Source: Prochlorococcus marinus str. NATL2A
Lineage (GTDB): Bacteria; Cyanobacteriota; Cyanobacteriia; PCC-6307; Cyanobiaceae
DNA length: 32,000 bases
Reading direction: 5' to 3'
NCBI RefSeq assembly: GCF_000012465.1
Contig: NC_007335.2
Span: 60,001 to 92,000, forward strand
The first letter of the stretch is position 1. Every line of letters starts with the position of its first letter. Under the pieces are notes generated by a model. That model was not told where the DNA came from, did not search any database, and saw only the letters and a program-made list of their open reading frames with translations. Shown here in pieces: positions 3,080 to 24,793 of the stretch. The position numbers and the translations under genes were made by a program.

Positions 3080-3187
3080 TCTGCTTTCTCTCGAGATAGC
3101 TAAATTCAAGCGGCGTATGGGGGAAATGAGCGATGGTTCTATGACTAATGAGAGTGAAGAAATTTATGTTGGATATCTAAGTGGTTA
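3080..3187. repeat. conserved non-coding 3' flank of member 1 (inverted copy of 14095-14200)
   Basis: The reverse complement reads ACCACTTAGATATCCAACATAAATTTCTTCACTCTCATTAGTCATAGAACCATCGCTCATTTCCCCCATACGCCGC. At 14098 the sequence reads ACCACTTAGATATCCATTACAAATTTCTTCACTCTCATTATTCATATAACCACCACTCATTTCCCCTCATACGCCGC. Confidence 0.8.
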
Positions 3188-4642
3188 ACCAAAACCAGTC
3201 AGCTCAGTAAAGAGCGCTTTGTTCTCTGCTGATTCTGCAAACCCTAGGAGCGCTTCATAGCGCGTTTCAATTCCACTACTAAGGTTACCTACCCAGTAGT
3301 TAAGTCCTTCAGCATCAGCGTCTCTTCCAAGCACATTCTTATAGAGATTATTGACGTACGTCTCATCACTGACGTTGCTTCCATATTTTTCAGTGAACTC
3401 TGCAGAACCTAAAAATGATTGAGCAACTACACGTCTAGTATTTTTCCCCGAACTAAATTGATCAATCCAGTACTTCAATCCATCAGCGTCAGGGAAGCGT
3501 GCGAAGGCAGCGTTATAGAGACGGAACATCTCACCTGAGTCGGTGTTTAAACCTGTGACTTGATTGAATGTACCAATAACATCTTTATTGATATCGATCG
3601 ACGTATCTGAAAACTTAACTGTGGAAAGACCAGTTAAAGAGTCTATTGTTGAAGACGAATCTAACTTGATTCCATATTTATTATTGCCTTGATTAATAAA
3701 AGTGTATTCATGAAAAGCCCCGCTATAGTCTTTCGTCGTTAATATGTCTGGTTGATAGCCTGAAAGACCTTGATTATTAATTTGAAACATCGATTCTAGT
3801 TTTTCACTAGATGGTTTTGTTAATACTTTACTTATGTAATCTTCATATAATTGATGGCCTAGAGGATTATCTTTTTTGATTGATTCAGGAGTTAAATGGG
3901 AGTCAGACCATTCAGGGTCCATACTCCCAGAGTATTTTGGATTAAATCCCCATTCTGCGAAAGTAAGTGCATATTGATATTCAACTGTGACCATTTTCCA
4001 GTAATCGAAACTATTTTTACCTACATGTTCATAATCAGTTGCATCAAATACACCTGTTTTAATAGCTTCTTGAGCAGCCTCATAAAGTAAACCACTCCAT
4101 TGAAATTCATTATCTTCCTCATCAAAATTTTGATACGCAGTTCTATCTTCAATAAATATAAATTGATCAGGGTAAGCACCCGGTAAAGCAAATCTAACTA
4201 GTGTATGAAGAAGATGTTCTAGGACTTCGGTGATTTGTTCATTAGATGTTTTGATTGCATCCCCTGGAAGATTGTGTTGCCAGATAAAATCAGTCGCATT
4301 GTGTTTATCATTAGTACTATCCCAACCTGAGTAGTTTTTATTAATTAAAGGTGGACTATAAGAATCCATTTCTTCTACACCAATTCTTTGGAGAGTATTA
4401 ATCTTTTTTAAATGCTCAATTGCTTGTTGCTGTTTTGTTGAATTTACATTGGCTCCATTAGGGTCTAGAAGCAGCTTGGTTGTTTGGGCTACTTTACGTA
4501 TGAATTCATCTCCTACCGCAGCATTTCCCCCTGCTTCTTTTAGACCAGCAATTTTTATACCATAGACTTCTACAGATTTAGTAAATGGACCTAGTGCTGT
4601 GGTTGTAGTAAGTGCCCCACTGGAATATATAGCTTCAGTCAA
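3185..4642 (-). CDS. DUF4214-tailed protein with an N-terminal head of unknown fold (family member 1)
   Basis: 485-codon ORF. The C-terminal 190 aa are near-identical to the neighbouring gene: linker YSGAF..GTFDQVTG, then FRLYNAAFARFPDADGLKYW and NVLGRDADAEGLNYW repeats. Only a TTG start is available (an in-frame TAG lies 9 codons upstream). No signal peptide is visible by eye. Confidence 0.85.
   Translation of the reverse strand: MTEAIYSSGALTTTTALGPFTKSVEVYGIKIAGLKEAGGNAAVGDEFIRKVAQTTKLLLDPNGANVNSTKQQQAIEHLKKINTLQRIGVEEMDSYSPPLINKNYSGWDSTNDKHNATDFIWQHNLPGDAIKTSNEQITEVLEHLLHTLVRFALPGAYPDQFIFIEDRTAYQNFDEEDNEFQWSGLLYEAAQEAIKTGVFDATDYEHVGKNSFDYWKMVTVEYQYALTFAEWGFNPKYSGSMDPEWSDSHLTPESIKKDNPLGHQLYEDYISKVLTKPSSEKLESMFQINNQGLSGYQPDILTTKDYSGAFHEYTFINQGNNKYGIKLDSSSTIDSLTGLSTVKFSDTSIDINKDVIGTFNQVTGLNTDSGEMFRLYNAAFARFPDADGLKYWIDQFSSGKNTRRVVAQSFLGSAEFTEKYGSNVSDETYVNNLYKNVLGRDADAEGLNYWVGNLSSGIETRYEALLGFAESAENKALFTELTGFG
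3191..3694. repeat. copy A of a perfect 504-bp direct repeat (coding: C-terminal module of member 1)
   Basis: Read base by base against 4729-5232 (offset 1538), I found no mismatch. Identity decays within ~35 nt beyond 3694. Confidence 0.9.
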
Positions 4643-4722
4643 AATATCACCAGAATATTTGTTATCCTAATAAATTTATTTTGTAAGTGCTGTAGTTTAA
4701 ATTTTAGTAATGATTTGGCTTT

Positions 4723-6117
4723 TTAATTAAAACCAGTCAGCTCAGTAAAGAGCGCTTTGTTCTCTGCTGATTCTGCAAACCCTAGGAGCGCTTCATAGCG
4801 CGTTTCAATTCCACTACTAAGGTTACCTACCCAGTAGTTAAGTCCTTCAGCATCAGCGTCTCTTCCAAGCACATTCTTATAGAGATTATTGACGTACGTC
4901 TCATCACTGACGTTGCTTCCATATTTTTCAGTGAACTCTGCAGAACCTAAAAATGATTGAGCAACTACACGTCTAGTATTTTTCCCCGAACTAAATTGAT
5001 CAATCCAGTACTTCAATCCATCAGCGTCAGGGAAGCGTGCGAAGGCAGCGTTATAGAGACGGAACATCTCACCTGAGTCGGTGTTTAAACCTGTGACTTG
5101 ATTGAATGTACCAATAACATCTTTATTGATATCGATCGACGTATCTGAAAACTTAACTGTGGAAAGACCAGTTAAAGAGTCTATTGTTGAAGACGAATCT
5201 AACTTGATTCCATATTTATTATTGCCTTGATTGACAAAAGTATATTCATTAAAAGCCCCACTGTAAGATTTTGAATTATTAGATATCGGATATTTCAGGG
5301 AGGTTCTAGTATTTTCAAAGAAGTCCCAAATTATATTATTAGTATCTTTCCCTGAAATATTTAAATTAAACCAATTATGACCTCCATTAATAATTTTGTA
5401 ATTTGCTACTGTCAAGATTTGATTGTCAGTGGTGTAACTAGAAATTATGACGTCTTCACTATTAGATGTCTCTGAAATTATGATCGGACTACTTTTGATA
5501 GCATTTATTTCTTTCCAATATGAAAGAGCTTCGTCTACGGCGAGTAGTGATCCATCTATTCCCTCATAAGGTCTAATTGAGTCACTAGTGCCGGTCATGT
5601 TTAATACAGACGTCGAATGAGAAGGTTGGTCTCCTGTGCTCATTAGTTCATACATTGAGCCAGAGACTGCTGCTATTGCGGAAATCTTTGAACTTAGATA
5701 AGTAGCTAATCCATATGCCATATCTGCTCCATTGGAATATCCAACCGCATAAACTTTTTGAGAATTAATATTTAGATTATTAGAAATCAGATCTATTAAA
5801 TCATTTATAAAATTTATATCATCTGAATTACTTTTGTTTGTAGGGTCTTTTTTTAATGGGTTCCAATGTGGCTCTCCTGATGCTAATTCTGCTCCTTCAG
5901 GGTATACAAGTATAAATTCTTTATCTTCAGATAATTGCCTGAAATCTGATATTCCAAGTTGATATTCAGCACTTGTACCAAATGGGTGAAAGTTAAGAAG
6001 TAACGGAACCTCTTTTTTACCTTCATATGATTTTGGTATGTAGATTAAATATTTTCTGCTCAACTCTTTATGGACAAATGAATTAGTAGATAATTCCCCT
6101 ATCTTGAATCCTTCCAT
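4723..6117 (-). CDS. alpha/beta-hydrolase esterase (PHB-depolymerase / LpqC-like) fused to the DUF4214 tail (family member 2)
   Basis: The N-terminal 270 aa carry PLLLNFHPFG, ILVYPEG, HWNP and the nucleophile elbow GYSNGA. The C-terminal module is shared with 3185-4642. ATG start. Confidence 0.9.
   Translation of the reverse strand: MEGFKIGELSTNSFVHKELSRKYLIYIPKSYEGKKEVPLLLNFHPFGTSAEYQLGISDFRQLSEDKEFILVYPEGAELASGEPHWNPLKKDPTNKSNSDDINFINDLIDLISNNLNINSQKVYAVGYSNGADMAYGLATYLSSKISAIAAVSGSMYELMSTGDQPSHSTSVLNMTGTSDSIRPYEGIDGSLLAVDEALSYWKEINAIKSSPIIISETSNSEDVIISSYTTDNQILTVANYKIINGGHNWFNLNISGKDTNNIIWDFFENTRTSLKYPISNNSKSYSGAFNEYTFVNQGNNKYGIKLDSSSTIDSLTGLSTVKFSDTSIDINKDVIGTFNQVTGLNTDSGEMFRLYNAAFARFPDADGLKYWIDQFSSGKNTRRVVAQSFLGSAEFTEKYGSNVSDETYVNNLYKNVLGRDADAEGLNYWVGNLSSGIETRYEALLGFAESAENKALFTELTGFN
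4729..5232. repeat. copy B of the perfect 504-bp direct repeat (coding: C-terminal module of member 2)
   Basis: See 3191-3694. The last sense codon differs (GFG-stop versus GFN-stop). Confidence 0.9.
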
Positions 6118-6299
6118 ATCTTTAGAAGAAAGTGATTAGAATACAATAATCTATCTAGGTTTCTACAAACCTTGAAAGATTCAAAGAATCCCAGAGACAA
6201 CCAGCATCTGCCTAATAACTACGCCAACAACACAGAAAAAGATTACTCGGCTTAAGACGTAGAAAGGGAGGTTATTCATCTAATTTCTCAACAGATCAA

Positions 6300-6575
6300 T
6301 CAATCACCAAAACGATAATGCTTACGGACTGCCTTATGAACATCCCATCTACAGTCTATTCCTGCGGGGAAGACAACTAAGTCACCTGCTCCAAACTTCA
6401 CAGATTCTCCTCCATTAGGAGTAACTGTGACTTCACCCTCAAGCAATAAGCAAGTCTCCTTGTCGTCATATGTCCAATCAAAAGAGCTGGCATCACACGT
6501 CCAGATTGGCCAGTTTTTAATTCCTAATTCATCAAAGGTACTCTCAGGACAAGGAGAGGTGACTGATATAGACAA
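6300..6575 (-). CDS. small cupin-fold protein (cupin_3 / DUF861-like)
   Basis: 91 aa. WTYDDKETCLLLEGEVTVTPNGGESVKFGAGDLVVFPAGIDCRWDV matches the single-domain cupin beta-barrel pattern. The start is TTG. Confidence 0.75.
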   Translation of the reverse strand: MSISVTSPCPESTFDELGIKNWPIWTCDASSFDWTYDDKETCLLLEGEVTVTPNGGESVKFGAGDLVVFPAGIDCRWDVHKAVRKHYRFGD

Positions 6576-6748
6576 GAGATAAAAACATAGTGGACTTCAG
6601 TTTTAGCTCCTTATAGAAACAGTTGTCTAATAACTACTCAAATTTTTAAGGCATAGCCCTTACACATGAGAGATGATAAGTTTTTTTAATCTAAACTTGT
6701 AGTCCAATGACTTATTCGTTTTATTAGCATAGAACAATACATTAGTTA

Positions 6749-6955
6749 ATGGATTCAGCTAATCAAATCCAAGCCCTCGTTGACGAAGTAGAAAAGAACC
6801 CAGAATACAAAATTAGCGAACAAGAAGCTAAGGGCTTCCTGTCAGAGATTAAGCGACTCACAAAAGAAGATAAAACTAATATGCCTCCCTTGGTTGTGAT
6901 AATAATGGCTTATATCAACATGCTTTTTCCAGAACTAGATGAAGTGAAGGTCTGA
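6749..6955 (+). CDS. hypothetical protein (68 aa)
   Basis: ATG-initiated ORF with protein-like composition. No recognisable motif. Confidence 0.45.
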   Translation: MDSANQIQALVDEVEKNPEYKISEQEAKGFLSEIKRLTKEDKTNMPPLVVIIMAYINMLFPELDEVKV

Positions 6956-7046
6956 GGAAAAAGTTAAAAAGTATTCGAGAACAATCTTCACCAGATTGCA
7001 GTTCAAGTTTTCAGGAATGGACTAAAAAAATTGAAGATGCAGATAT

Positions 7047-7379
7047 ATGCCAGTCTTGATAATTGGGTTGAAAATTTACGACAGACTACCAGAGGACGAG
7101 CAAAAAGAGTTTGCATTAGTAGAGCGATATAGAACTGATTATTTTTATGAGTGCTATGAGTATGAAAATGCGAAGGGAAACAAAAATTATGAGTGGAGTG
7201 ATAGATGTTTTAAAAATCAGGAGGAATTATTGGAGTTCTTCGGTTATGAAATGATCGAAGACTTAAATTTAGATGCCGTGTATGCAAGAAGAGTCGAAAT
7301 GTTTACTGATGAGGATGAAAAAGAGTTGATGAAATTCTGTGATGATGGTAATCAAATAAAAGTAATGGGCGCAAACTAA
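7047..7379 (+). CDS. hypothetical acidic protein (110 aa)
   Basis: ATG-initiated ORF, co-oriented with its neighbours. No recognisable motif. Confidence 0.5.
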   Translation: MPVLIIGLKIYDRLPEDEQKEFALVERYRTDYFYECYEYENAKGNKNYEWSDRCFKNQEELLEFFGYEMIEDLNLDAVYARRVEMFTDEDEKELMKFCDDGNQIKVMGAN

Positions 7380-7492
7380 TCACGCTTTCAAATTGTGCCA
7401 GTATTAATACGCATTGAAATTAAATAGATAAGTAAAGAAGTCTAGCCATATTTTTTAGAGGTAGTTTTAATATATAGAGTTATAGATTTTAA

Positions 7493-8083
7493 ATGTCCCT
7501 TGGAATCACTGAGCTTGAGTTAACCGATGCTAGTACAATTTCAATTCCTACAGATGCAATATTGATACTTTTTCTATTAATTGTTTTTGCATTAATAGGT
7601 TATTACTTTCACAACATCCTCGACAATCAAACAAATCAATTTGTTGAAAAAGTAGACGATAGTTTACATCTTGAATTAGTCAAAGAAAAGCTAGAAGATC
7701 AATTAACTCTTGAGTCAGCAACAGTGAATCACGAAAAAACAGAAAAGCCAAATATTAAAAAACTAAATTTCATACCACCTTCAAAATTTTGGGGGATTGG
7801 TAGTTTGGCTGTTGTAGCCATAGGAGGATCAAGTCTTTTAAGGATCCAATCTATCCAAAATTCATATAAAGGAGTGAACACTAGTCAGGTCAATATCAAG
7901 ACAGAGAATCAATCGACAAAATCTTTATTATCAATGGCTCAAATAAAATCATCAAATCAATCTCAAACTAAAATAAAAAAAATTAGTTATGTTGATCCTT
8001 TATTATCAACTAACAATAGTTCCAAAAATAATAATTTTTTACAGGTTCAGCGAAGACGCACAGAGGATTTTTTCTCTTTCTAA
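7493..8083 (+). CDS. hypothetical membrane protein (196 aa)
   Basis: Hydrophobic helices (ILILFLLIVFALIGYYF and a second one around GIGSLAVVAIGG) and a Ser/Asn/Gln-rich tail. Confidence 0.5.
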   Translation: MSLGITELELTDASTISIPTDAILILFLLIVFALIGYYFHNILDNQTNQFVEKVDDSLHLELVKEKLEDQLTLESATVNHEKTEKPNIKKLNFIPPSKFWGIGSLAVVAIGGSSLLRIQSIQNSYKGVNTSQVNIKTENQSTKSLLSMAQIKSSNQSQTKIKKISYVDPLLSTNNSSKNNNFLQVQRRRTEDFFSF

Positions 8084-8785: not shown

Positions 8786-10480
8786 TTAATATAATCCAGT
8801 CATTTCAGAGAAAAGACCTTTGTTTTCAGCAGATTCTGAGAATCCCAAAAGTGCTTCATGCCTCTCTTCTATTCCATTCGTAAGATTACCGACCCAGTAG
8901 TTTAAACCAGCAGTATCTGCTTCTCTACCAAGGACATTTTTATAGAGATTATTCACATAGTTCGCATGAGAAACATCTTCGCCATACAACTCTATAAATT
9001 CTGCAGATCCCAAAAATGATTGAGCAACAACTCTTTCACTATTAGCTCCAGAACTCCTTTGACGAATCCAATATTCAAGACCACTTGCATCAGGAAATCG
9101 AGCAAAAGCAGCATTGTAGAGACGAAATGTTTTACCAGTTACATCATCTTTCCCTGTGACTTGATCAAAGGTACCTTTCAGGTCATCTAAAACACTCAAA
9201 TCCTTATCAGCAAAACTCAAACTAGAAACACCTGTTAACTCATCAATACCAGTTGCTGTTTTTATTCCATAGCGATCATCGCCTAAATCATAAAATGTGT
9301 AATCAGAAGATTTAAAGGCATAACTCTTATTCGTTGTAGGGACCTCAACAACATAGAAAAGTTTGTTATCAGCACTAACATCATTCCACTGACCAGCAGA
9401 ACCATATTTCCCTGGATTTGAACGCGACCAATCTTCTAATCCCAATGCCAATCGATGTTGAAACCCCTGACTATCATCAGGCTCTGTACCACCCCAACCT
9501 GTTCCCCACTCTTCTCTACTTTTACTGATTTCAACATTTGAATTAGACCACTTCCAATTCCATTCACTTGAAGTTTGAGTAGATGTTGTATCTCCATCAC
9601 TACCTCCTAACCAAATATATGCAGCACCACCTCCATCAGATCCACTCGTATTGGCAAACTCTGCTGTCGTAATTTGTCCACTGACCTTGCTAAATAATTG
9701 ATCATTTTCTGCTTTTGTTTCTACCTCAACTAATTTTCCTCCTAATGATTCTGCTGCTGTCTGTGCCTCAGACCATGTTTTACTTGTTTTAAAAAGGTGA
9801 TAACGACTACTTCCAAAATTCCATGTTAAATCAGCACCTATTGTTGGATTATTAATTATGCTTTTGGAAATAGGATTCAAATACCAATTGTCTTCATAGT
9901 ATGTTGATACTCGGTATTGATTAAAATCTTCCATCTTATGAGTGGAAATTTCTGAATAAACTCCATTAGTAGTTTTTACATTGGCTACCAAATGCTCAAT
10001 TGATCCTCCTGGATTCCCAATTAAACTTTGTGCAGTGAACCATCCTATCTCTGTGCCTGCATTCTCAATACTAATGGCGTTGTTTGAAAGATATCCATAC
10101 ATATCCTCTGATTCTTTAACTAATCCAGTTTGCTGATAAGTGGTTTTCTCCCAATCCCATGCTGACTTTGAAGATATTTTACCACTGTTAAAAAGACCAT
10201 TTTGATCATATCCAAAAGTACCTAAAAATATTTGACGATTAGCATCCTGAATTGACTCATCACTAGAGATATACTCTGTATTCTGACTTTGTATAATTGA
10301 ATTATTGCTAAGTTCGAACTTCACATCCGCAACTGTGTAAACCTTATCTGTATCCGAGGATTCAAAAACCTTATTACTTTGTGGAGTTCCTAATCCATAA
10401 ACAATATCTTCCTCAAAAACAAGTCCGTCTATAATCCAAGATTTAACCACTTTTTGCACAATAAGACTATTGAATATCAT
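8786..10480 (-). CDS. C-type-lectin-like domain protein with DUF4214 tail (family member 3)
   Basis: 564 aa. Residues ~224-380 (nt 9341-9811) follow the CTLD pattern: TWSEAQ..ESLGGKLVEVET..E..F, YIWLGGSD, WKWSN, EPDD, GQWNDV. The C-terminal linker plus FRLYNAAFARFPDASGLEYW / NVLGREADTAGLNYW form the shared module. Confidence 0.9.
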   Translation of the reverse strand: MIFNSLIVQKVVKSWIIDGLVFEEDIVYGLGTPQSNKVFESSDTDKVYTVADVKFELSNNSIIQSQNTEYISSDESIQDANRQIFLGTFGYDQNGLFNSGKISSKSAWDWEKTTYQQTGLVKESEDMYGYLSNNAISIENAGTEIGWFTAQSLIGNPGGSIEHLVANVKTTNGVYSEISTHKMEDFNQYRVSTYYEDNWYLNPISKSIINNPTIGADLTWNFGSSRYHLFKTSKTWSEAQTAAESLGGKLVEVETKAENDQLFSKVSGQITTAEFANTSGSDGGGAAYIWLGGSDGDTTSTQTSSEWNWKWSNSNVEISKSREEWGTGWGGTEPDDSQGFQHRLALGLEDWSRSNPGKYGSAGQWNDVSADNKLFYVVEVPTTNKSYAFKSSDYTFYDLGDDRYGIKTATGIDELTGVSSLSFADKDLSVLDDLKGTFDQVTGKDDVTGKTFRLYNAAFARFPDASGLEYWIRQRSSGANSERVVAQSFLGSAEFIELYGEDVSHANYVNNLYKNVLGREADTAGLNYWVGNLTNGIEERHEALLGFSESAENKGLFSEMTGLY

Positions 10481-10752
10481 AGTGCTAGTAAGTATAGAAT
10501 GTCTAAGTTAATTCAATTATTAGTTTATTTATATCTTTTACCAAAATCACTAAATGAGGGAGTGTACTTTAGTAAACCCCTATTGTCGCCAAGGTTTCAA
10601 TCAAACATTTTAGGTACGCTAACTAATATCAATAGTAAGAGTATTCCGTCTTGTATAAGAATCACATAATAGTCAAATATGCTAAAATAGTGAATAAATA
10701 CATGATCAAATCAGTTGCAATAATTGAGTTTTTGGGGATCACACAATCTTTG

Positions 10753-10832
10753 TGGTATAGTCGATATTGATAAGTACATAAGGCTTAAAACCTGGTGATA
10801 GCAGTTGATTATAAGGATTAAGTTAGTGGTAT
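10753..10832. repeat. left copy of the ~80-nt direct repeat flanking cynS
   Basis: GTGGTATAGTCGATATTGATAAGTACATAAGGCTTAAAACCTGGTGATAGCAGTTGATTATAAGGATTAAGTTAGTGGTAT aligns at about 75% identity with 12002-12082. An extra GTGGTAT lies at 10837. Confidence 0.75.
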
Positions 10833-11079
10833 TTTAGTGGTATATAACTAACTCATGTAGATAATATAAAAAATAAAATTTTACTTATTTTCATTTACTT
10901 TAAATAAATTTCGGTGCAAAAGGGTATATATCAATTTTATATAGATAATTTTCACCAATATATTAAAGAAATGAAAATGGTGATTAACTATTAAAAGTAC
11001 TTATATTGTAGCGACTATCACTTGTCATGATATTCAAGAAAATTCATTATTAATATTATTAATTATTAGGCTTAAACAA

Positions 11080-11460: not shown

Positions 11461-11904
11461 ATGTCATTTCCTGAATCAACTCAATTATTATTAAAAGCAA
11501 AAAAAGAAAAAGGATTAACCTTTGCAGATATTGGAATTCTATTAGGACTAGATGAAGTCTGGGTTGCTAGTCTTTTTTATGGACAATCAACTGCCAGTGA
11601 TGAAGAGGCTGATAAATTATTAACTACTTTAGGACTTGGTGCGGAACTTAAAGAGATATTGACAACTCCACCAGTAAAAGGATCACTAGATCCAGTAATT
11701 CCCACCGATCCATTGATATATCGTTTTTATGAAATCATGCAAGTTTATGGCATGCCAATGAAAGACGTGATTCAAGAAAAGTTTGGTGATGGGATCATGA
11801 GTGCAATAGATTTTACAATCAATGTAGATAAAGTCGAAGATCCGAAAGGTGACAGAGTGAAGGTTGCAATGTGTGGGAAGTTTTTACCCTACAAGAAATG
11901 GTAG
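11461..11904 (+). CDS. cynS: cyanate hydratase (cyanase)
   Basis: 147 aa. It has the N-terminal HTH-like half and the C-terminal cyanase signature [28 protein letters not shown]...V.DPKGDRV.....GKFLPYKKW. Confidence 0.95.
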
Positions 11905-12001
11905 AGATTAATTCTTTTCTTTATGTTCAAGTGGTATAAAAGTGGTATATTTGAAAAAGTAATTCTTCAAATTCGTTCCAGTGGAATAGATCTCAGGTTA
12001 A

Positions 12002-12082
12002 GTGGTATAGTCGGCATTGATACATATATAAACCCTAAAACCCAGTAATAGCAATCGTTCTAAGGATTTAGGTTGGTGGTAT
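12002..12082. repeat. right copy of the ~80-nt direct repeat flanking cynS
   Basis: GTGGTATAGTCGGCATTGATACATATATAAACCCTAAAACCCAGTAATAGCAATCGTTCTAAGGATTTAGGTTGGTGGTAT. Extra GTGGTAT(A) copies lie at 11931 and 11942, and a GTGGAAT variant at 11981. Confidence 0.75.
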
Positions 12083-12100
12083 ATTTGCAGTTTTTGATCT

Positions 12101-12417: not shown

Positions 12418-14097
12418 ATGTCTAATTCGAGTATTGATTTTTTATTAAATAACTCTAATCAGAGAGATTATATAAAGACAATCATAGAAAATAAATTAAT
12501 CAATTATTCTCTTTCCGCAAATCATAGTAATATTGAGTCTAATTGGTTTCAAAAAACTTTTAAACACATTACCAATCTTTCAGGCATAGAGTTTATATTA
12601 ACAGATCAAACTTCATCAGATATTCATTATACTTTAGAGATAGTAAGTGAAAATGAATGGGACAAAACTGATGATTTATCAAAGAGAATTATTGGAACTG
12701 ATAACAAGAAGTTCAACTACCAAACGACGCATAAAACTGATTCGTATGGCGGAGTTCGTGCTCAATGTGAAGTTACAAGAGTAATACTTAAATCTCTAGG
12801 TTTGTCATTTCCAAATGGTGATTCTTTGGATGAAAATTATACTTTTAATGATTCGATTATGTCAGGTAATTTAGTTGGTCAACTAAAAGCTGGAAGAGTG
12901 ATTTCAACAACAGTTAATGATCAATTAGCTATTCAATCCATACTAGGTACAAATAAGGCAAGATTAGAAACTGAAAAATATCATAATACAAAATTAAATG
13001 AGGATTTATTAATAGGAGAAAATGGGAGAAAGGATTATTTTATTCTAAATAGAAAAGGTTGCTATACAGGAGCAGATGCGGCTCATACATTTGAGGAAAG
13101 TTCTGATGGGCAAGGAACTATTTTTAAGAATTTTGATTATTTAAATGCATCGGTTGCGAATTTTAATCCAGAGGAAGGAGATAAAATATTTTTGTCTAGA
13201 AAATTATTTAGCCCATATGGAGATGGGTACCCTACAAATGAAGAAATAGCTTTAACAAGTGCATGGGTAAACAATGATGGTAAAGATGTAGTGATCGATC
13301 TCATACAAGCGTCGGAGGATTTAGGTCCATTCGAGACTGAAGATGAATTGCATATGAATTCATCTTCTAATTTAATTTTCAATGAGGCAGGTAAACTTAT
13401 ATTGAATGTGAACGGTACAGAACAGTATGTTGGACCATGGGGAGGTGCTGTCCCTTCATACGTGAATGGACACCTTGCAGCATTTATAGATATTCAAGAT
13501 ACTCATTATAAAAAGCTACCACTTAATTGCTTTGAGATAGTTGATTACGATTGGAAAGCTATATCTAATAGTTATGATAATAATTTTTACAAGTTAGCTG
13601 ATAATCGTTTTGGATTTGGTCCAACAAAAGATACTGTCGATGAAATCACTGGATTGAGCACGATTCAGTTTAATGACAAGAGTTTGCATGTAACTAATGA
13701 TATCAAAGGAACCTTTGATCAAGTCACCGGATTAAACACTGACTCCGGTGAAATGTTCCGTCTCTACAACGCTGCATTCGCTCGCTTTCCTGATGCTGAC
13801 GGACTTAAGTATTGGATAGATCAGTTTAGTTCTGGACGTAACACTAGACGAGTCGTTGCTCAATCATTCTTAGGATCTGCAGAATTCACTGAGAAGTATG
13901 GAAGCAATGTTAGTGATGAGACGTATGTCAATAATCTCTATAAGAATGTGCTTGGTAGAGACGCTGATGCTGAAGGACTTAACTACTGGGTTGGTAATCT
14001 CAGCAGTGGACTTGAAACGCGCTATGAAGCGCTCCTAGGGTTTGCAGAATCAGCTGAGAACAAAACCCTCTTTTCTGAAATGACCGGACTTGTTTAA
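12418..14097 (+). CDS. DUF4214-tailed protein with a possible degenerate metzincin-like head (family member 4)
   Basis: 559 aa, ATG start. The C-terminal module is ~97% identical in protein to members 1/2 but differs at many synonymous sites. The head contains TRVILKSLGLSFPNG...SIMSG. Confidence 0.9.
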   Translation: MSNSSIDFLLNNSNQRDYIKTIIENKLINYSLSANHSNIESNWFQKTFKHITNLSGIEFILTDQTSSDIHYTLEIVSENEWDKTDDLSKRIIGTDNKKFNYQTTHKTDSYGGVRAQCEVTRVILKSLGLSFPNGDSLDENYTFNDSIMSGNLVGQLKAGRVISTTVNDQLAIQSILGTNKARLETEKYHNTKLNEDLLIGENGRKDYFILNRKGCYTGADAAHTFEESSDGQGTIFKNFDYLNASVANFNPEEGDKIFLSRKLFSPYGDGYPTNEEIALTSAWVNNDGKDVVIDLIQASEDLGPFETEDELHMNSSSNLIFNEAGKLILNVNGTEQYVGPWGGAVPSYVNGHLAAFIDIQDTHYKKLPLNCFEIVDYDWKAISNSYDNNFYKLADNRFGFGPTKDTVDEITGLSTIQFNDKSLHVTNDIKGTFDQVTGLNTDSGEMFRLYNAAFARFPDADGLKYWIDQFSSGRNTRRVVAQSFLGSAEFTEKYGSNVSDETYVNNLYKNVLGRDADAEGLNYWVGNLSSGLETRYEALLGFAESAENKTLFSEMTGLV

Positions 14098-14200
14098 CCA
14101 CTTAGATATCCATTACAAATTTCTTCACTCTCATTATTCATATAACCACCACTCATTTCCCCTCATACGCCGCTTTTATATAGCTATTAAAAGAGAAGAA
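14095..14200. repeat. conserved non-coding 3' flank of member 4 (inverted copy of 3080-3187)
   Basis: See 3080-3187. Indels break any common reading frame, so the conservation is not protein-coding. Confidence 0.8.
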
Positions 14201-16870: not shown

Positions 16871-17206
16871 TTATGCAACTTTAGAATCTTCTTTTTCATT
16901 TAACTCTCTCTTGATCTTGGAATATTTTCTGCCAATTTTATATTGCCTATGGAATAAATCTAGCTGGTTAGTATCATCATTTGTAGATTTAGTTTCTATC
17001 TCTGCTATTGGTTTAGTCATTTGACTCCATACAAAAAGCATCGCAATTGCAGACACAAGCAATGGAAGATACGCTTTAATCAAACTAACGACTACTAGAG
17101 TAGTTATAAAACAAAGAGAAAAAAGAGTCCATTTATGAATTCTAGTTTTTTCTAGTTTTTTATTTTTTATTTTTGAACTAGGAATAATTGGCAGATCAGG
17201 AGTCAT
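16871..17206 (-). CDS. hypothetical membrane protein (111 aa)
   Basis: Two adjacent hydrophobic helices (WTLFSLCFITTLVVVSLI, LPLLVSAIAMLFVW). Confidence 0.5.
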   Translation of the reverse strand: MTPDLPIIPSSKIKNKKLEKTRIHKWTLFSLCFITTLVVVSLIKAYLPLLVSAIAMLFVWSQMTKPIAEIETKSTNDDTNQLDLFHRQYKIGRKYSKIKRELNEKEDSKVA

Positions 17207-17822: not shown

Positions 17823-18368
17823 TTATTTAATTTCACATTTTAGTTCTGCTAGGGCTTCATTAGGTAGGCCAAGAAATATATCTAAGATCTTATTACCAGT
17901 TTTAGGGATGATGGAAATACCTACGAGCTTTATTGCTCCATTACCTTGAAGAACATGACCTTCTCCTTCATGAAATTTACCTTTTACTTTTCCTGATGTG
18001 AGCAAGGTCTTAACTATTAATTTAGGAAACATAAGAATAGTTCCAATGCTAAAAAGAAATTTGGATTCAAATTTCAATACCGTTTCTCCAGAATTCTTAT
18101 CAATAGTTCCTTCTAGCTGTTCCATATACATTTCGATCTTGAAACCTGGAGGTAATGGAAGAGATAAAAATTTGGTTGTTTTTGAAGTAAGAGGAGGAAT
18201 TGAAAATGTTTTAGATGAAAAGCTGATATGAAGGAGATTACTTTTTTTATTTGGAAGTAATATCGCTTCGCCTCCGCCCCCATAAGCGTTATAGCGAAAT
18301 GATGGATATTTACCTATTGCTAATCGACATCCATCTAAACTCTTTAGTTGCATAGAGTAATCAAACAC
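17823..18368 (-). CDS. conserved-looking hypothetical protein (181 aa)
   Basis: Long ATG ORF with balanced, globular composition. The antisense ORF 17998-18231 is its shadow. I cannot confidently name a family. Confidence 0.65.
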   Translation of the reverse strand: MFDYSMQLKSLDGCRLAIGKYPSFRYNAYGGGGEAILLPNKKSNLLHISFSSKTFSIPPLTSKTTKFLSLPLPPGFKIEMYMEQLEGTIDKNSGETVLKFESKFLFSIGTILMFPKLIVKTLLTSGKVKGKFHEGEGHVLQGNGAIKLVGISIIPKTGNKILDIFLGLPNEALAELKCEIK

Positions 18369-18935: not shown

Positions 18936-19036
18936 TTTTATTAATTCATAGCTATAAAAATACCATCTATTATAAATACTTTATAAAATACTTATAGCAT
19001 TATTTAGACTTAATTTATATTTAGAATAACTTTAGC

Positions 19037-19361: not shown

Positions 19362-19715
19362 TCATACTAAACCATTTATTTTAGAAAAAAGCTCTTTATT
19401 CTAAGATGATTCAGAGAAACCTAAAAGAACTTCATATCGTGTTTCTGATCCAGTGTTGAGTTGACATAGCCAATAGATCAAACTAGGTTCATCAGGGCCT
19501 CTACCTAAAACATTGATATAAAGAGTATTTACATAGCTTTCGTTGGAGACGTCTTCTCCATAACGCTCCTTGAATTCTGCAGAGGCTAAAAATGATGAGG
19601 CCACTGCTCTTTCATCATCTTTGCCAGAACTAAAATTACTGATCCAATATCGTAATCTATCTGGATCAGGTAGACGTTTAAATGATGCGTTGTATATCTT
19701 GGTTAGATAATGCAT
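19362..19715 (-). pseudogene. decayed DUF4214 tail fragment (family member 6): no head or linker, and a premature in-frame TAG
   Basis: It encodes only ...IYNASFKRLPDPDRLRYWISNFSSGKDDERAVASSFLASAEFKERYGEDVSNESYVNTLYINVLGR...GFSESS-TAG-NKELFSKINGLV-TGA. The TAG at 19401-19403 sits where all paralogs have Glu of the ENK tail, and the frame continues to an ancestral-looking stop at 19362-19364. Sequence upstream of 19696 is unrelated to the family linker. Confidence 0.8.
19499..19696. repeat. inverted-repeat arm (pseudogene side), 198 nt with 2 mismatches to 24459-24656
   Basis: The reverse complement was aligned by hand to member 5. The only differences are one A/C and one A/G. Both ends of the tract are abrupt. 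Confidence 0.88.
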
Positions 19716-20029: not shown

Positions 20030-20425
20030 ATGAAAAAAATTCAAAAAGAACATTTTATAGTAATTATTTTAGGATTCTTAGTAATATTTCTCTTGCAGAC
20101 ACCTATTTTACAAGCATTGGAATTTGATTTAACAGCAGCACAAAATGCAGTTGGAAAGAGATTTGCAAGCAAGTTCTGCGAAGCAAAGGAAAAAGGATTT
20201 TCATCAGAATCTTCTAGTGAGTTTGCATTAAATAATACTTATTTAAAATTTGTAGCGTTTCCTGAAGACGAAAGATTTATAGAAGATCTTTGGGAGTTTA
20301 CAAGAGCAATAATCCGAACAGATTGTGGTCAATATGTTAATGAGGAGGAGGAGATTATTTTAAGAGACTTCTTTAAAGAAGAAGGAGAAATAGCAAGTAA
20401 TCGTGATTTATATTTGCCAAATTAA
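20030..20425 (+). CDS. hypothetical protein with N-terminal signal/anchor helix (131 aa from the ATG at 20030)
   Basis: MKKIQKEHFIVIILGFLVIFLLQTPILQALE... The ORF-track TTG start at 19988 is less likely. Its stop overlaps the next start (TAATG). Confidence 0.6.
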   Translation: MKKIQKEHFIVIILGFLVIFLLQTPILQALEFDLTAAQNAVGKRFASKFCEAKEKGFSSESSSEFALNNTYLKFVAFPEDERFIEDLWEFTRAIIRTDCGQYVNEEEEIILRDFFKEEGEIASNRDLYLPN

Positions 20426-21534
20426 TGACTAATATTTATGACTATATAGTCATAGGGGCAGGAATATCTGCTTGTACGTTTGCATCAACTCTAAATAAAA
20501 AATCTTCTGATATTTCTATATTACTAGTTGAACATGGAAGGAGAATTGGTGGGAGAGCTACAACGAGAAAATCAAGAAAAAATAATATTCTTGAATTTGA
20601 TCATGGTTTACCATCTATTAACTTTAGCAAACATATTTCAGAAGACATATTGGAATTAATTTCGCCATTAATAAATTCAAAAAAATTGTTAGATATATCA
20701 AATGATACTTTATTAATTAATGAATTTGGCGTATTAAGTCATGGATTTACTAATGATGTAATTTATAGAAGTACACCTTTTATGGCTAACTTTTGTGAGG
20801 AAATAATTAATCAGTCTATGAACCCTAAAAAAATTAATTTTTTATTTCAAACACTAACTAAATCAATTAAACGTATACAAGATTTATGGGAGATTGAAGT
20901 TAATCATGGAAGATTAATTAAATCTAAGAATCTGATTTTATCGAGTTCTTTAATAGCACATCCAAGATGCTTGAATATTCTGAAGATTAATTCTTTACCA
21001 CTCAGGGATGCTTTTATTCCTGGCAAAGATAAATTGGTCGATGTTTTAATAAGGGAAACAAAAAAATTAACATATATAAATAGAAAAATTTATATCTTTC
21101 ATGTTTCTAATTTGTCTTTATCTCGAAAATTTAATCATCAATATTTACAAATAGTCTTTTCAAATGTAATTAAAGAGTATTCAAATTTTGAAAGAATTAT
21201 TTTTCAAAGACAATCTGATGGATCCATTATTATAGCCTTACACTGCATTTTTATAAATCATCTATACGAGCTTAATAATATCACCAAATCTTTAATATCA
21301 CTTTTTGCAAATTATCAAATCTTCTTGGACTTATTTTGCGAGGCAAGCCTTATTGATAAAATGGATTGGAGAGCTTCTCAACCTCTTAATAACTTATTGT
21401 CCAAAGAATTTCAGTGGTCTGATAGTAGTAAGATTGGTTTTTGTGGAGATTGGTTTGATCTGAATGGTTGTGTAGGTGTTGAGGCGGCAATGAATAGTTC
21501 TTTTAGATTGGTCAAATTATTGAACCGGAATTGA
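20425..21534 (+). CDS. NAD/FAD-dependent oxidoreductase (renalase-like, COG3380-type)
   Basis: N-terminal dinucleotide-binding fold YDYIVIGAGISACTFA, followed by EHGRRIGGRATTRK. C-terminal GFCGDW. 369 aa. Confidence 0.8.
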   Translation: MTNIYDYIVIGAGISACTFASTLNKKSSDISILLVEHGRRIGGRATTRKSRKNNILEFDHGLPSINFSKHISEDILELISPLINSKKLLDISNDTLLINEFGVLSHGFTNDVIYRSTPFMANFCEEIINQSMNPKKINFLFQTLTKSIKRIQDLWEIEVNHGRLIKSKNLILSSSLIAHPRCLNILKINSLPLRDAFIPGKDKLVDVLIRETKKLTYINRKIYIFHVSNLSLSRKFNHQYLQIVFSNVIKEYSNFERIIFQRQSDGSIIIALHCIFINHLYELNNITKSLISLFANYQIFLDLFCEASLIDKMDWRASQPLNNLLSKEFQWSDSSKIGFCGDWFDLNGCVGVEAAMNSSFRLVKLLNRN

Positions 21535-21685
21535 TTTGTAAATAATATTCTTAAATAATTTCATTCTCTAAATATTAGAGAAAACCCAACATTTTTTAGA
21601 TTTATCAAAATTCCAAAGAATATATGTTTTGCGGCTTGCTTTATTTATGTGGAGTAGATATATATGATTTGTATTTCTTATTACT

Positions 21686-21958
21686 ATGATTACGGTTGTT
21701 TTTCTACTTGCTTTAGGCTTGGCTGGTTGGACTGTCTCTACATTAATGAGTAAAGGCAAGCATCAAGATGACATTACTAAAGAGCTAGGAAATATTTTTG
21801 AGAGCTTAAAGTTGCTAACTTCTTCAATTACTGCACTTGTAAAACTCTTGATGAAAGATTCTATTGCGTCTGCAAAAGATGAGGATTTTCAACCAATCAG
21901 TTCGAATGTTATTGATCTATTAAAGGTAGAAAAGAAAGATGATAAGGAAGTAGCTTGA
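21686..21958 (+). CDS. hypothetical small membrane protein (90 aa)
   Basis: N-terminal helix ITVVFLLALGLAGWTVSTLM. ATG start. Confidence 0.45.
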   Translation: MITVVFLLALGLAGWTVSTLMSKGKHQDDITKELGNIFESLKLLTSSITALVKLLMKDSIASAKDEDFQPISSNVIDLLKVEKKDDKEVA

Positions 21959-22020
21959 TTGATCGTCCAAAAAATATTTATATTTTATGGATAATAGCTA
22001 CTTTTTAATATCTTTAAATT

Positions 22021-22323
22021 TTAGCTTCTTCTAATCCATGAAGGTGCTCCAGAAAACCATTCTCCCAGATCATCATGATCGGGATTGTATGTTACGTGGG
22101 GTTCATCTGTACTCAGATCAAGTCCTTCAAGCAATTCATCTATTTGATTTGTAATTTTCGTTTGTCTTTGAATGCGTGAGGCTTTTCTAAGCCAACTAGA
22201 TACATTTTGATTATTCCTTGCATATTTATTGATATAAATTCTTTCCTCAAGGGTTACTTTTTTTCCCATTGACAGTCTCGTTAATATTTCTTGTATTCGA
22301 AGACGAGAGGTTGTAGTTAGCAT
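22021..22323 (-). CDS. hypothetical protein (100 aa)
   Basis: ATG ORF with balanced composition. No motif recognised. Confidence 0.55.
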   Translation of the reverse strand: MLTTTSRLRIQEILTRLSMGKKVTLEERIYINKYARNNQNVSSWLRKASRIQRQTKITNQIDELLEGLDLSTDEPHVTYNPDHDDLGEWFSGAPSWIRRS

Positions 22324-22574
22324 AGTTAATTATCTATTCTGCTCTTTCTAGCTTGAAATACATGAAGTGCAAGTTGTGTTGATTCAACTTGAGAATTAAT
22401 TTTAATTTTTAGAAATATTTTTCCAAAGTTAGTGATTATGCTCTTCAGCTTTAGCTGGCCACTTTCACCTTATTATATGTTATTCATATTACCCTTATGC
22501 AATTAGTGCAATAACTTTTGGTAGATGAATTTGCTGCAATTATTCTTTCGTAAAAGTTACTTCTTATCGATTCT

Positions 22575-22934
22575 TTATCGATTATGTGAAAATTTCTTTA
22601 ATACATCCATATCAATAAGTTTCAAAGTACTCTCATCTGTTGCTTCAAGATCAATTAAAGGAGCCATGCCATCTTCAAATGCTTCTTTCCATCTGGGAGC
22701 ACAGAGACACCAGTGATCGCCTTTTTTTAAGCCAGGAAATCCTATTTGAGGTGTAGATAGATCATTTCCTTGAGCTTTGCTGTAAGAAAGAAATTGTTCA
22801 GTGATAACAGCACAAACAGTATGCATTCCTTGATCTGATATGTCTGTTCTACATGATCCGTCTCTATACCATCCAGTCATTGGACTGCAACTACAAGATT
22901 TAAGTTCAGTACCTAAGACGTTTTTTGGCGACAT
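22575..22934 (-). CDS. DUF2237 family protein
   Basis: CSCSPMTGWYRDGSCRT, GMHTVCAVITEQFL, GNDLSTP and GDHWCLCAPRWKEA match the Cys-rich DUF2237 pattern as I remember it. Confidence 0.8.
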   Translation of the reverse strand: MSPKNVLGTELKSCSCSPMTGWYRDGSCRTDISDQGMHTVCAVITEQFLSYSKAQGNDLSTPQIGFPGLKKGDHWCLCAPRWKEAFEDGMAPLIDLEATDESTLKLIDMDVLKKFSHNR

Positions 22935-23005
22935 GACTTGTTTTCTCCTTATGGCTATAGTATGACTTTATATAATTATTAATCAAATATTAAAGGTTAA
23001 AAAAT

Positions 23006-24793
23006 ATGACCGCTCCATTAATACAAGGTGCCTCTGGTATCGAGGGAGAAAAATTAACCTATGCTTCTACCAATGAAAATAATAAGGAAATTTATACTTT
23101 TACTGCTAACGAGCCCGTTACTTGGTCTATAAGTGGGGGAGAGAAAGGCCTTTTTTCTATTGAGCAAGATACTGGAAAATTAAGTTTTCAAGATGTTCCT
23201 GATTATGAAACAATCAAGAATTTAAATGGAACAACTTTAGAATTTCATACTAACTTTTCAAGTCAAAATGTCGGTGCAAAATTTTTTGTAGAGGTTTACA
23301 ATGATCAAAATCAAACTAATCAGACTACACCTATTACTACTAATAACTTCATTGAATATATAATTGATGGCTCATATAAAAATACTTTAATTCATAGATT
23401 AGTTCCTGATTTTGTTATTCAGGGTGGTGGATATACCTGGCCAACTCTAGCATCTAATGAAAGTGGTGGCTATCCATTAAGAGTCAAATCGAAAGGTGAA
23501 ATAATTAATGAACCTTTCAATTCAAATTTGATGGGTACTATCGCAATGGCAAAAGTTTCTGGGCAGCCAGATAGTGCGACATCTGAGTGGTTTATAAATT
23601 TGTCCGATAATAAAAGTCTTGATTCTCAAAATGAGGGATTTAGTGTATTTGGTCATCTATTAGGAGATAGTATTGAGAATCCTCTTTTATTAAATAGTCA
23701 ATCAAAGTATAATGTAAATTATAATGAGGTTGGTCTAAATATACCTGAGCTGCCTTTAAATAATGTTGAGGGCAATGTGATAAACAATACGAATTATTTT
23801 GCTATTCATTCAATCTCTACGATTAGCCAACGTCCTAGTGAAATTAAGAATGTATTTAATGTAATCGTTACTGCTAATGATACAAATGGAAATCAATCAA
23901 ATCAATATGTAATAGTTAATGTTAAAGATATCCAAGGAGAGGTTCTTAATGGGATAGATGGACAAGATGCTCTCAATGGAGGCTTGGGAAATGATACTTT
24001 TCAAGGGAATGGTGGAAACGATACAATTGATGGAGGCAATGACTTTGATATAGCTATTTATACTGGTAATTTTTCTGATTATACTTTCACGATCGCTAAT
24101 AAAATCTTGACCATTAGCGATAACCGTTCATTGATAAATGATGGGATAGATACATTGACTAACATTGAGAAACTTACTTTTGCTGACAAAAATGCTTTAA
24201 TCACAAGTAAAGAAATTAAACCAATTGATGCCCTAGGATTTCAAGCAGAGAGAGTTTATTCAGGTAAAAGTGATTCTTACAAATTTTATGATTTGGGAAG
24301 TGATAATTATGGTGTTGGGACTTCTACTGGTATTGATGAATTGACTGGTGAATCTATTCTCAAATTTGATGATAAAAAGATGAATCTAAAGAATGATATC
24401 AAAGCAACATTTGATCAAGTGACCGGTTTAGATACAGATTCTGGAAAAATGTTCCGACTATACAACGCCTCATTTAAACGTCTACCTGATCCAGATGGAT
24501 TACGATATTGGATCAGTAATTTTAGTTCTGGCAAAGATGATGAAAGAGCAGTGGCCTCATCATTTTTAGCCTCTGCAGAATTCAAGGAGCGTTATGGAGA
24601 AGACGTCTCCAACGAAAGCTATGTAAATACTCTTTATATCAATGTTTTAGGTAGAGATTATGACCAGAGTGGATATGATTACTGGTTAAGTAATTTGAAT
24701 AATGGTGTTGAAACCAAGTATGAATTGCTATTAGGGTTTTCTGAATCATTGGAAAATAAAGGACTATTTTCTGAAATGACTGGATTCTATTAA
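23006..24793 (+). CDS. multidomain protein: cadherin-like repeat with a nested cyclophilin-type PPIase, RTX Ca-binding repeats, and DUF4214 tail (family member 5)
   Basis: - TFTANEPVTWSISGGEKGLFSIEQDTGKLSFQDVPDYE is a cadherin-like N-half.
- TLIHRLVPDFVIQGGGY, GTIAMAK, SATSEWFINL and FSVFGHLL are cyclophilin motifs alignable to E. coli PpiB.
- NVFNVIVTANDTNGNQSNQYVIVNVKD is a cadherin-like C-half.
- GGLGNDTFQGNGGNDTIDGGNDFD are RTX nonapeptides.
- The C-terminal FRLYNASFKRLPDPDGLRYW ... ENKGLFSEMTGFY is the shared tail. Confidence 0.92.
   Translation: MTAPLIQGASGIEGEKLTYASTNENNKEIYTFTANEPVTWSISGGEKGLFSIEQDTGKLSFQDVPDYETIKNLNGTTLEFHTNFSSQNVGAKFFVEVYNDQNQTNQTTPITTNNFIEYIIDGSYKNTLIHRLVPDFVIQGGGYTWPTLASNESGGYPLRVKSKGEIINEPFNSNLMGTIAMAKVSGQPDSATSEWFINLSDNKSLDSQNEGFSVFGHLLGDSIENPLLLNSQSKYNVNYNEVGLNIPELPLNNVEGNVINNTNYFAIHSISTISQRPSEIKNVFNVIVTANDTNGNQSNQYVIVNVKDIQGEVLNGIDGQDALNGGLGNDTFQGNGGNDTIDGGNDFDIAIYTGNFSDYTFTIANKILTISDNRSLINDGIDTLTNIEKLTFADKNALITSKEIKPIDALGFQAERVYSGKSDSYKFYDLGSDNYGVGTSTGIDELTGESILKFDDKKMNLKNDIKATFDQVTGLDTDSGKMFRLYNASFKRLPDPDGLRYWISNFSSGKDDERAVASSFLASAEFKERYGEDVSNESYVNTLYINVLGRDYDQSGYDYWLSNLNNGVETKYELLLGFSESLENKGLFSEMTGFY
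24459..24656. repeat. inverted-repeat arm (member 5 side)
   Basis: See 19499-19696. Confidence 0.88.

Follow-up and report, generated by a model that had tools for sequence, protein, structure and literature searches.

We analysed a window of 32,000 nucleotides from Prochlorococcus marinus str. NATL2A (NCBI RefSeq assembly GCF_000012465.1, contig NC_007335.2, positions 60,001 to 92,000; window G+C about 0.30-0.39), a low-light strain of the LLI clade. The window opens with gatB, coaE and argJ. In the hypervariable island that begins at the 3' end of argJ lie five genes, here called A to E, whose products carry different N-terminal regions (heads) and end in the same module of about 190 residues (the tail); a remnant of a further copy, fragment F, lies between genes D and E (Table 1). 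An earlier reading made from the letters alone, hereafter the sequence-only reading, had listed these six family members, and we could verify the coordinates of all of them, five as open reading frames and one as a remnant. Prochlorococcus has a streamlined genome and is believed to export few proteins. Here we describe the family and its relatives, and ask which route of export and which role of the tail would best account for them.

Table 1. Features of the window, with the tail family first (window positions; strand in the third column).
Feature	Position	Strand	Description
Gene A (PMN2A_1384)	3185-4642	-	485 residues; head of unmatched fold 3755-4642; module 3188-3754
Gene B (PMN2A_1385)	4723-6117	-	464 residues; polyhydroxyalkanoate (PHA)-depolymerase/feruloyl-esterase type head 5296-6117; module 4726-5295
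Gene C (PMN2A_1389)	8786-10480	-	564 residues; weak C-type-lectin-like domain at about head residues 220-376; module 8789-9346
Gene D (PMN2A_1391)	12418-14097	+	559 residues; predicted degenerate metzincin head 12418-13533; module 13534-14094
Gene E (AAZ58891, annotated as cyclophilin)	23006-24793	+	595 residues; N-terminus weakly cadherin-like; cyclophilin 23321-23662; RTX 23951-24052; extra beta unit about 24053-24205; module 24242-24790
Fragment F	19362-19715	-	remnant of the DUF4214 part of the tail, without head or beta unit; translation stops prematurely, 12 codons short of the normal end
Gene A 3' flank	3086-3184	-	85-93% identity to gene D 3' flank
Gene D 3' flank	14098-14197	+	homologous to gene A 3' flank
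Native argJ 3' end plus 29 nucleotides	2942-3003	+	edge of the hypervariable island
Inverted partial copy of argJ 3' end plus repeat element	10749-10835	-
Second inverted partial copy of argJ 3' end	11969-12085	-	argJ part 11969-12030; 84-nucleotide repeat copy 12002-12085; upstream of gene D
gatB, coaE, argJ	21-2974
cynS	11461-11904	+	cyanase (E 5e-64); single gene in the island between genes C and D
EutQ-like cupin gene	6300-6575	-	small conserved island gene (1e-28)
DUF2237 gene	22575-22934	-	small conserved island gene (3e-51)
DUF4912 gene	26327-26866	+	small conserved island gene (1e-7)
Open reading frames without family match	7047-7379, 7493-8083, 16871-17206, 17823-18368		conserved
ParA-family ATPase gene	28751-29422	+	E 8e-25
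MsbA/HepA-like ABC exporter gene	29621-31456	-

One C-terminal module on unrelated heads

Each of genes A to E, as well as fragment F, matches the Pfam family PF13946 (DUF4214) in two stretches, with E-values from 5e-31 to 5e-40 and scores of 107-136 bits against a gathering score of 23.2 bits; gene A gives 5.5e-40 and fragment F 5e-31. The tails are thus one domain family, as the sequence-only reading had proposed, and the motifs it listed reappear in our alignment. Over the last ~190 residues, identity to gene D is 58-73% and 82 columns are invariant, with FRLYNA, PD..GL.YW and E.ENK.LF.E.TG among the invariant motifs. The module runs from a small beta unit through two DUF4214 repeats to a conserved last helix (its profile matches residues 297-484 of gene A), and the DUF4214 helical domain makes up 130 residues of it, with about 40 invariant positions.

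An AlphaFold2 model of the gene D module, built from 74 sequences (predicted local distance difference test, pLDDT, 93; predicted template-modelling score, pTM, 0.87), shows a five-strand beta unit (residues 10-56) packed against a nine-helix bundle. Searching the PDB by sequence with the module returned nothing except a chance parvalbumin match (E 0.3). Phycobilisome linker domains (PF00427) are the only solved fold relatives of the helical bundle, and the likeness is weak (E 3e-3 to 0.1; TM-score 0.37-0.47; 13-21% identity). In a model of gene E residues 300-595, an RTX beta-roll is followed by a beta unit, a flexible stretch, a second beta unit and the helical bundle. Foldseek matched the beta part to the RTX domains of known type I secretion substrates, namely 9cse, CyaA block V, Serratia LipA and the Pseudomonas MIS38 lipase. 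Many relatives likewise have a weak extra copy of the beta unit directly upstream of the module. From this model and these extra copies, we conclude that what had been described as a linker is a repeatable beta unit of post-RTX type.

As had been claimed, the five heads show no relation to each other; the best E-value in pairwise blastp comparisons is only 0.089. For gene B, a head of the polyhydroxybutyrate-depolymerase esterase type had been proposed, and the matches point the same way, if below the cut-off of the curated model: the head aligns with NF050058, the model of extracellular type-1 short-chain PHA depolymerases, over its full length (positions 4-276 of 276, E 7e-34), with 117.5 bits against a model cut-off of 150 bits, and it matches a feruloyl esterase in the PDB at E 2.5e-15. 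The description of gene D as a possible dead metzincin is borne out. Its head aligns with family heads that have an intact metzincin motif (hhalign 97.3%, E 1.6e-11), and the zinc motif HExxHxxGxxH, retained in full in seven relatives, reads TRVILKSLGLSF in gene D, so that we predict gene D to be a dead metzincin. The calls for genes C and E hold in part. The C-type lectin signal in the gene C head is consistent between Pfam (2e-3) and the PDB (8e-3), but weak. In gene E the cyclophilin domain is clear (1e-22), while the cadherin match is weak (19 bits) and the RTX match falls just short of its cut-off (22.4 against 23 bits); the RTX region is modelled as a beta-roll and matches Caulobacter SapA at 1.2e-11. 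The gene A head has no match in Pfam, NCBIfam or the PDB.

None of the five proteins had appeared to start with a signal peptide, and this extends to all 66 full-length family proteins that we collected (see below). A Kyte-Doolittle hydropathy heuristic, on which this result rests, found no signal-peptide-like or membrane-spanning hydrophobic stretch in any of them: the highest 11-residue mean within the first 40 residues is 1.57, and the highest 19-residue mean anywhere is 1.27. Known C-terminal sorting systems (PEP-CTERM, the type IX C-terminal domain and sortase) require a Sec signal, and most also require a C-terminal hydrophobic helix. We rejected these systems for the tail family, which has no N- or C-terminal hydrophobic segment; the tail terminus reads ...NKxLFSEMTGFx.

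Distribution, constraint and exchange of the tail

Scanning species-representative genomes yielded 52 loci, all in Prochlorococcus, including the complete genomes of MIT0916 and MIT1012 and many single-cell genomes. All 76 open reading frames with a complete module, which come from 24 Prochlorococcus genomes, close with it, leaving 0-3 residues before the stop codon. The 66 full-length proteins fall into 32 head clusters under a strict criterion; a loose single-linkage clustering was dropped because shared RTX and beta-unit segments merged most heads. Once a duplicate from overlapping loci is removed, 65 proteins remain, with one to six per genome in 24 genomes. Pfam finds DUF4214 in all 66, RTX repeats in 32 (with 1.4e-34 the strongest match among relatives), cyclophilin in 16, cadherin in 12 and peptidase M10 in five, and RCC1, the serralysin C-terminal domain (M10_C), SWM_repeat, trypsin, leishmanolysin, GH114 and Ig-like domains in one or two members each. 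The heads with M10 and M10_C, leishmanolysin, trypsin, GH114, cadherin, SWM_repeat or RCC1 are of kinds usual in secreted proteins.

Proteins in this wider set range from 137 to 2,580 residues. Two giants of 2,580 and 2,471 residues, each with the module at its end, are found in MIT0916 (locus L005, 11004-18746, minus strand) and MIT1012 (locus L045, 3113-10528, plus strand); the MIT0916 giant lies in the argJ island as the neighbour of a D-type gene. On one single-cell contig (L036), two family genes of 408 residues each (551-1777 and 3837-5063) are identical at the protein level and lie 3.3 kb apart, a pair that we read as a very recent tandem duplication.

Outside this family the domain is widespread. 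A profile search of 1.84 billion representative proteins returned 31,810 DUF4214 proteins, 1,746 of them at E <= 1e-30, and their spread includes non-photosynthetic bacteria. The complete module stands right at the C-terminal end of 94 of the best 150 global representatives, and the 83 of these with complete heads form 66 head clusters; in another 43 of the 150, DUF4214 is internal or repeated, which is a different architecture. Many other proteins carry DUF4214 internally, in up to 10 repeats. In Prochlorococcus, a 598-residue protein adjoining argJ has it mid-protein (L001, 10996-12792, minus strand), further island proteins have non-terminal copies (L034, 3968-6613 and 9354-10610), and a 1,171-residue RTX island protein has it at the N-terminus (L047, 15765-19280, minus strand). 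Because of these copies in other island proteins, DUF4214 cannot be said to be confined to the terminal module. In the phage collection searched we found no cyanophage with the module. The sole phage match was gp15 of EBPR siphovirus 2 from activated sludge (JF412297.1, 3930-4247; annotated as a protease; 33% identity, E 5e-9).

Within the family, the ratio of nonsynonymous to synonymous substitution rates (dN/dS) of the tail is 0.05-0.18, and synonymous sites are near saturation in the older paralog pairs. Taken together, these values indicate that the conservation of the tail is functional. Only 3 of the 65 proteins have their nearest tail within their own genome.

Tails have also been copied recently within the window. 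Genes A and B do not differ over their last ~555 nucleotides; the identity sets in abruptly where the beta unit begins and breaks off at the stop codon. An ortholog of the gene A head in AG-409-A10 (locus L039) is 66% identical in the head and just 57% identical in the tail, and it has an RTX block and a beta unit that are both missing from gene A; for the ortholog of the gene B head, the tail is 79% identical. The simplest reading of this difference between the two orthologs' tails is that gene A recently received the tail of gene B. The tails of genes A and D are 80-96% identical, with homology running about 100 nucleotides beyond the stop codons, and these opposed tails form a 515-nucleotide inverted repeat around 10 kb. 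Fragment F at 19499-19696 is 99% identical to gene E at 24459-24656.

LLI genomes differ in the family members that they carry right beside argJ, among them D-type and C-type genes, giant RTX proteins and others; the E-type gene, by contrast, is conserved and syntenic in 16 genomes. The sequence that follows argJ in MIT0916 (L005, 8609-8775) is found reversed in the window at 10780-10615, and an 84-nucleotide repeat with copies at 10752-10835 and 12002-12085 overlaps the inverted copies of the argJ 3' end. These inverted copies and the reversed MIT0916 sequence point to inversion or integration events at argJ, which, judged from sequence, looks like a hot spot for them.

A putative HlyB/HlyD-type exporter among surface-glycan genes in related genomes

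Two related genomes, MIT1012 and AG-402-P18, have an exporter operon directly downstream of a family gene whose metzincin head is intact. The operon encodes, in order, a conserved open reading frame of ~60 residues, a PpiC-like protein, a 991-residue ATP-binding cassette (ABC) protein with cyclic-nucleotide (cNMP)-binding, C39-like and ABC domains, and a HlyD-family protein. It is set within a surface-glycan cluster, where its neighbours include secA, a GDP-mannose dehydratase gene and a Wzm/Wzt-type exporter. MIT0801 has the same operon without a family gene, inside a large glycan-biosynthesis cluster. The MIT0801 ABC protein matches TIGR01846 (type_I_sec_HlyB) end to end with 697 bits (curated NCBIfam cut-off 725), and bacteriocin-exporter models with 452 and 390 bits; its adaptor matches TIGR01843 (type_I_hlyD) with 163 bits (cut-off 209). 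The C39-like match begins past the region of the catalytic cysteine, which by eye has become glutamate, a loss that we take to resemble the inactive C39-like domains of RTX exporters.

Beside secA, the Wzt-type polysaccharide-export ATPase itself has a pair of DUF4214 repeats at its N-terminus (module profile E 1e-11 to 4e-14; L047, 3904-5271; L049, 3822-5204; L053, 3474-4844; all on the minus strand). This unusual position of the domain hints that DUF4214 may bind glycan. The ~60-residue reading frame of the exporter operon (MAKVTIDGKEYNTDELSD...LKRLDAQIA...) has a coiled-coil look, is found at L053 9061-9252 (plus strand), at L047 about 10690-10880 and in L049, and might encode a substrate of the exporter itself or an accessory factor.

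No NATL2A protein was among the best 120 matches listed by either of two large protein searches for the exporter; as strains share only about 60% identity in this exporter family, the outcome neither confirms nor refutes its presence in NATL2A. The ABC exporter encoded in the window was considered as the cognate type I transporter and rejected, as its best matches are MsbA and HepA, HlyB reaches just 217 bits, and no adaptor gene lies beside it. In at least 12 related genomes this exporter gene is kept adjacent to the ParA-family ATPase gene, downstream of the E-type gene; we found no link between this pair (28751-31456) and the tail family. In some related genomes (L024 and L046), a four-gene ABC-transporter-like set that may serve cyanate transport lies a few kilobases from cynS. 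Across the whole window we found no Rfam match and no tRNA, and a scan for promoters and terminators gave signal at or under chance expectation.

Proposed type I export and surface retention, and the alternatives

The sequence-only reading held that DUF4214 has no established function, which is now partly outdated. A preprint of September 2026 describes Psh (PP_1794) of Pseudomonas putida KT2440, which has RTX repeats at its N-terminus and DUF4214 at its C-terminus; its export requires a functional type I system, and restoring a lost system brings export back (10.64898/2026.09.02.748959). Psh shields the producing cell from many phages without cross-protecting its neighbours, its authors propose that it sits on O-antigen and also that it masks receptors, and other DUF4214 proteins carry peroxidase, peptidase or Ig-like cargo (10.64898/2026.09.02.748959). 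In segmented filamentous bacteria, DUF4214 is regarded as likely to anchor proteins to the surface (PMC12780176), DUF4214 proteins have been detected in the secretome or spent medium of Serratia (10.1101/2020.05.31.123539), and 'Ca. Dechloromonas occultata' has an extracellular one. These proteins share the Pfam domain with the tail family and are predicted or detected to be extracellular or on the surface, although the segmented filamentous bacteria differ in their monoderm envelope and Sec-dependent export.

Compared by architecture, Psh is partly matched by gene E and the 32 relatives with RTX repeats. Its gene has a type I system and O-antigen genes in its vicinity, and so has the family member in MIT1012 and AG-402-P18; this kind of neighbourhood is present solely in those two genomes and not in our window. 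Whereas Psh is a single RTX-DUF4214 protein with no enzymatic head, Prochlorococcus has up to six paralogs per genome, with a specific composite tail, many members without RTX, and heads that are exchanged in a genomic island. The classical RTX substrates of type I systems (serralysin/AprA, Serratia LipA, the MIS38 lipase, CyaA and Caulobacter SapA) consist of a functional N-terminal domain, RTX repeats and an uncleaved C-terminal signal. The family has in common with them the absence of a Sec signal and, in related genomes, a putative HlyB/HlyD-type exporter, and the modelled RTX region of gene E resembles theirs. However, those substrates end in a short, poorly conserved signal, whereas the family ends in a large conserved helical domain; RTX is missing from four of the five window genes, and no curated target domain matches.

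Two further comparisons are more distant. Dockerins are small, internally duplicated C-terminal modules that sit on many unrelated catalytic heads and dock onto a common surface structure, and the cellulosomal enzymes that bear them are alike in principle, as a comparison from general knowledge. Dockerins have no sequence or fold relation to the module, and they are Sec-exported, calcium-binding, EF-hand-like and cohesin-binding. Polymorphic toxins such as the CDI (contact-dependent inhibition) and Rhs systems resemble the family in having one constant and one variable end, variable loci and recombination at the constant part, and the sequence-only reading had framed the family as their reverse. 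We set this frame aside as not the best one, since a conserved C-terminal end is the normal polarity of type I substrates. A polymorphic toxin system was itself rejected: its polarity would be the other way round, toxin domains are absent from the family, and the heads are not followed by an immunity gene or any conserved small open reading frame. Polymorphic toxins end in nucleases or pore-formers, whereas the heads here are of esterase, lectin, protease and isomerase types.

The explanation that we favour, with the chances for and against it about evenly balanced, is that the family members are substrates of type I secretion, with the export signal in the tail and probably a surface anchor there as well. 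We infer the secretion route, the location of the signal and the anchoring alike. Export would pass through a type I system, made up of an ABC protein, a membrane-fusion protein and an outer-membrane channel, and the uncleaved signal would be the extreme C-terminus, in the last helix (...ESAENKxLF(S/T)EMTG(F/L)x). Type I signals are C-terminal and uncleaved, which would explain why the module always comes last, why there is no N-terminal signal peptide, and why the polarity is the reverse of that of polymorphic toxins. The beta unit and the DUF4214 bundle would leave the channel first, fold outside and act as a folding nucleus. Once folded, the module would hold the protein on its own cell's surface, probably via a surface glycan such as an O-antigen-like polymer. 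This second role is suggested by a bundle whose size, fold and conservation go beyond the needs of a signal, by the copy on the Wzt-type ATPase and by the Psh precedent. The outcome would be surface display of esterase, lectin, live or dead metalloprotease, prolyl isomerase, adhesin-like repeats and other activities. Since all paralogs have the same ~570 nucleotides at their end, recombination or gene conversion between tails could move heads to new tails, rearrange the argJ island and so give rise to strain-specific head sets.

The sequence-only reading had viewed the module as an export, anchoring or assembly handle for swappable heads. That idea is partly supported and can now be put more specifically: the RTX repeats in 32 of 66 members, the lack of signal peptides, the terminal module, the nearby exporter in two related genomes, the A/B tail copy and Psh all fit it as indirect evidence. 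A bolder version, which we consider doubtful, is that DUF4214 is a glycan-recognition anchor used twice: on the Wzt-type ATPase it would recognise the surface polymer of its own cell for export, and on type I-secreted proteins it would retain swappable heads on that very polymer.

Several observations weigh against type I export with retention. A Pfam scan finds no RTX repeats in genes A-D, and none of the NCBIfam models of type I C-terminal target domains matches the tail. Known type I secretion signals are poorly conserved, and the end of this family is strongly conserved. The candidate exporter scores under the curated cut-offs for both of its proteins. Its PpiC-like gene is weakly similar to a peptide-maturation family and is preceded by the conserved 60-residue reading frame, so the exporter could serve another substrate. 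No NATL2A protein is among the best 120 matches listed for it, and the ABC exporter in the window is MsbA/HepA-like rather than type I and lacks an adjoining adaptor gene. Literature on the NATL2A locus tags, on type I secretion in Prochlorococcus and on NATL2A vesicle proteomes does not mention these genes. The sole solved fold relatives of the module, weak as the likeness is, are phycobilisome linker domains. For Psh too, glycan binding by DUF4214 rests on modelling and gene neighbourhood (10.64898/2026.09.02.748959).

If the proteins leave by a type I system and the module serves only as secretion signal and C-terminal folding cap, without anchoring, they would be released exoenzymes that diffuse off, with neighbouring cells or organic matter, dissolved or particulate, as their targets. 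We see this as possible, though we lean against it. All the evidence for type I export applies to it equally, the beta unit resembles a post-RTX capping region and is duplicated behind RTX in many members, DUF4214 proteins occur in Serratia spent medium, and the exoproteomes of marine Synechococcus contain haemolysin-like, metallopeptidase and RCC1-type proteins. Yet a domain of this length, number of invariant positions and dN/dS far exceeds what a type I signal needs; its occurrence on a glycan-export ATPase of the Wzt type speaks for a role in ligand binding; Psh protects the producer alone; and released enzymes would presumably bring little return to a free-living picoplankter in dilute seawater. 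Another export route, by outer-membrane vesicles or an unidentified pathway, with the module as a handle for cargo selection or assembly, would accommodate the RTX-free genes A-D, the unconfirmed exporter in NATL2A, and a tail whose degree of conservation would be unusual in a type I signal and which fits no known type I target-domain model. It strikes us as improbable: a protein without a signal peptide has no usual entry to the periplasm for vesicle loading, RTX, a type I hallmark, is present in half of the family, a member lies near the HlyB/HlyD pair in two genomes, and the C-terminal sorting systems need the Sec signal, and mostly the hydrophobic helix, that are missing here.

Two alternatives that dispense with export or with function are poorly supported. 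The DUF4214 pair could be a cytoplasmic, phycobilisome-linker-like scaffold that docks the heads, for example on the residual phycoerythrin of low-light Prochlorococcus. The fold likeness to PF00427 is consistent with this and weak, PF00427 has no Pfam match in the tail genes, and its biological context is entirely different. The heads are of extracellular types (PHA depolymerase, C-type lectin, metzincins, cadherin, RTX), and RTX folding requires millimolar calcium. With DUF4214 also spread over non-photosynthetic bacteria and the DUF4214 proteins examined elsewhere all secreted or surface-located, we judge a cytoplasmic scaffold very unlikely. That the common tail has no shared function, and is simply what recent duplication and gene conversion have left in an island prone to recombination, would agree with the identical A/B tails, the nearly identical patch of gene E and fragment F, and the A-D homology past the stop codons. 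The selection analysis contradicts it, with saturated synonymous sites and low dN/dS in older tail pairs, as do the many head clusters on a terminal module, both in the 24 genomes and among global representatives, and the rarity of nearest tails within one genome; we find this account scarcely credible.

C-terminal DUF4214 on type I-exported proteins was already known, and what this window adds is an unusually clear mix-and-match family, on the reading that its members are type I substrates retained by their tails. Across the clade the family would make up a strain-variable set of probable surface or secreted proteins, including adhesin-like giants of 2,500 residues, and it would bear on the use of organic matter by low-light Prochlorococcus, on its interactions with particles and heterotrophs, and on its escape from phages and grazers. 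With one tail and dozens of heads, it is also a natural experiment on DUF4214, a domain of unsettled function in ~32,000 representative proteins; the prediction is that the tail by itself would be enough both for export by a type I system and for attachment to the surface of the producer. We regard the finding as of moderate interest, as it concerns the surface biology of a globally dominant organism, offers a handle on an unsettled domain and, through the A/B tail copy, gives a direct and concrete view of how head repertoires get reshuffled. If the bolder, twice-used anchor version is right, the most abundant phototroph would have a plug-and-play surface display, reshuffled via identical tails in a hypervariable island, and such a display might, as has been suggested for Psh, hide phage receptors too.

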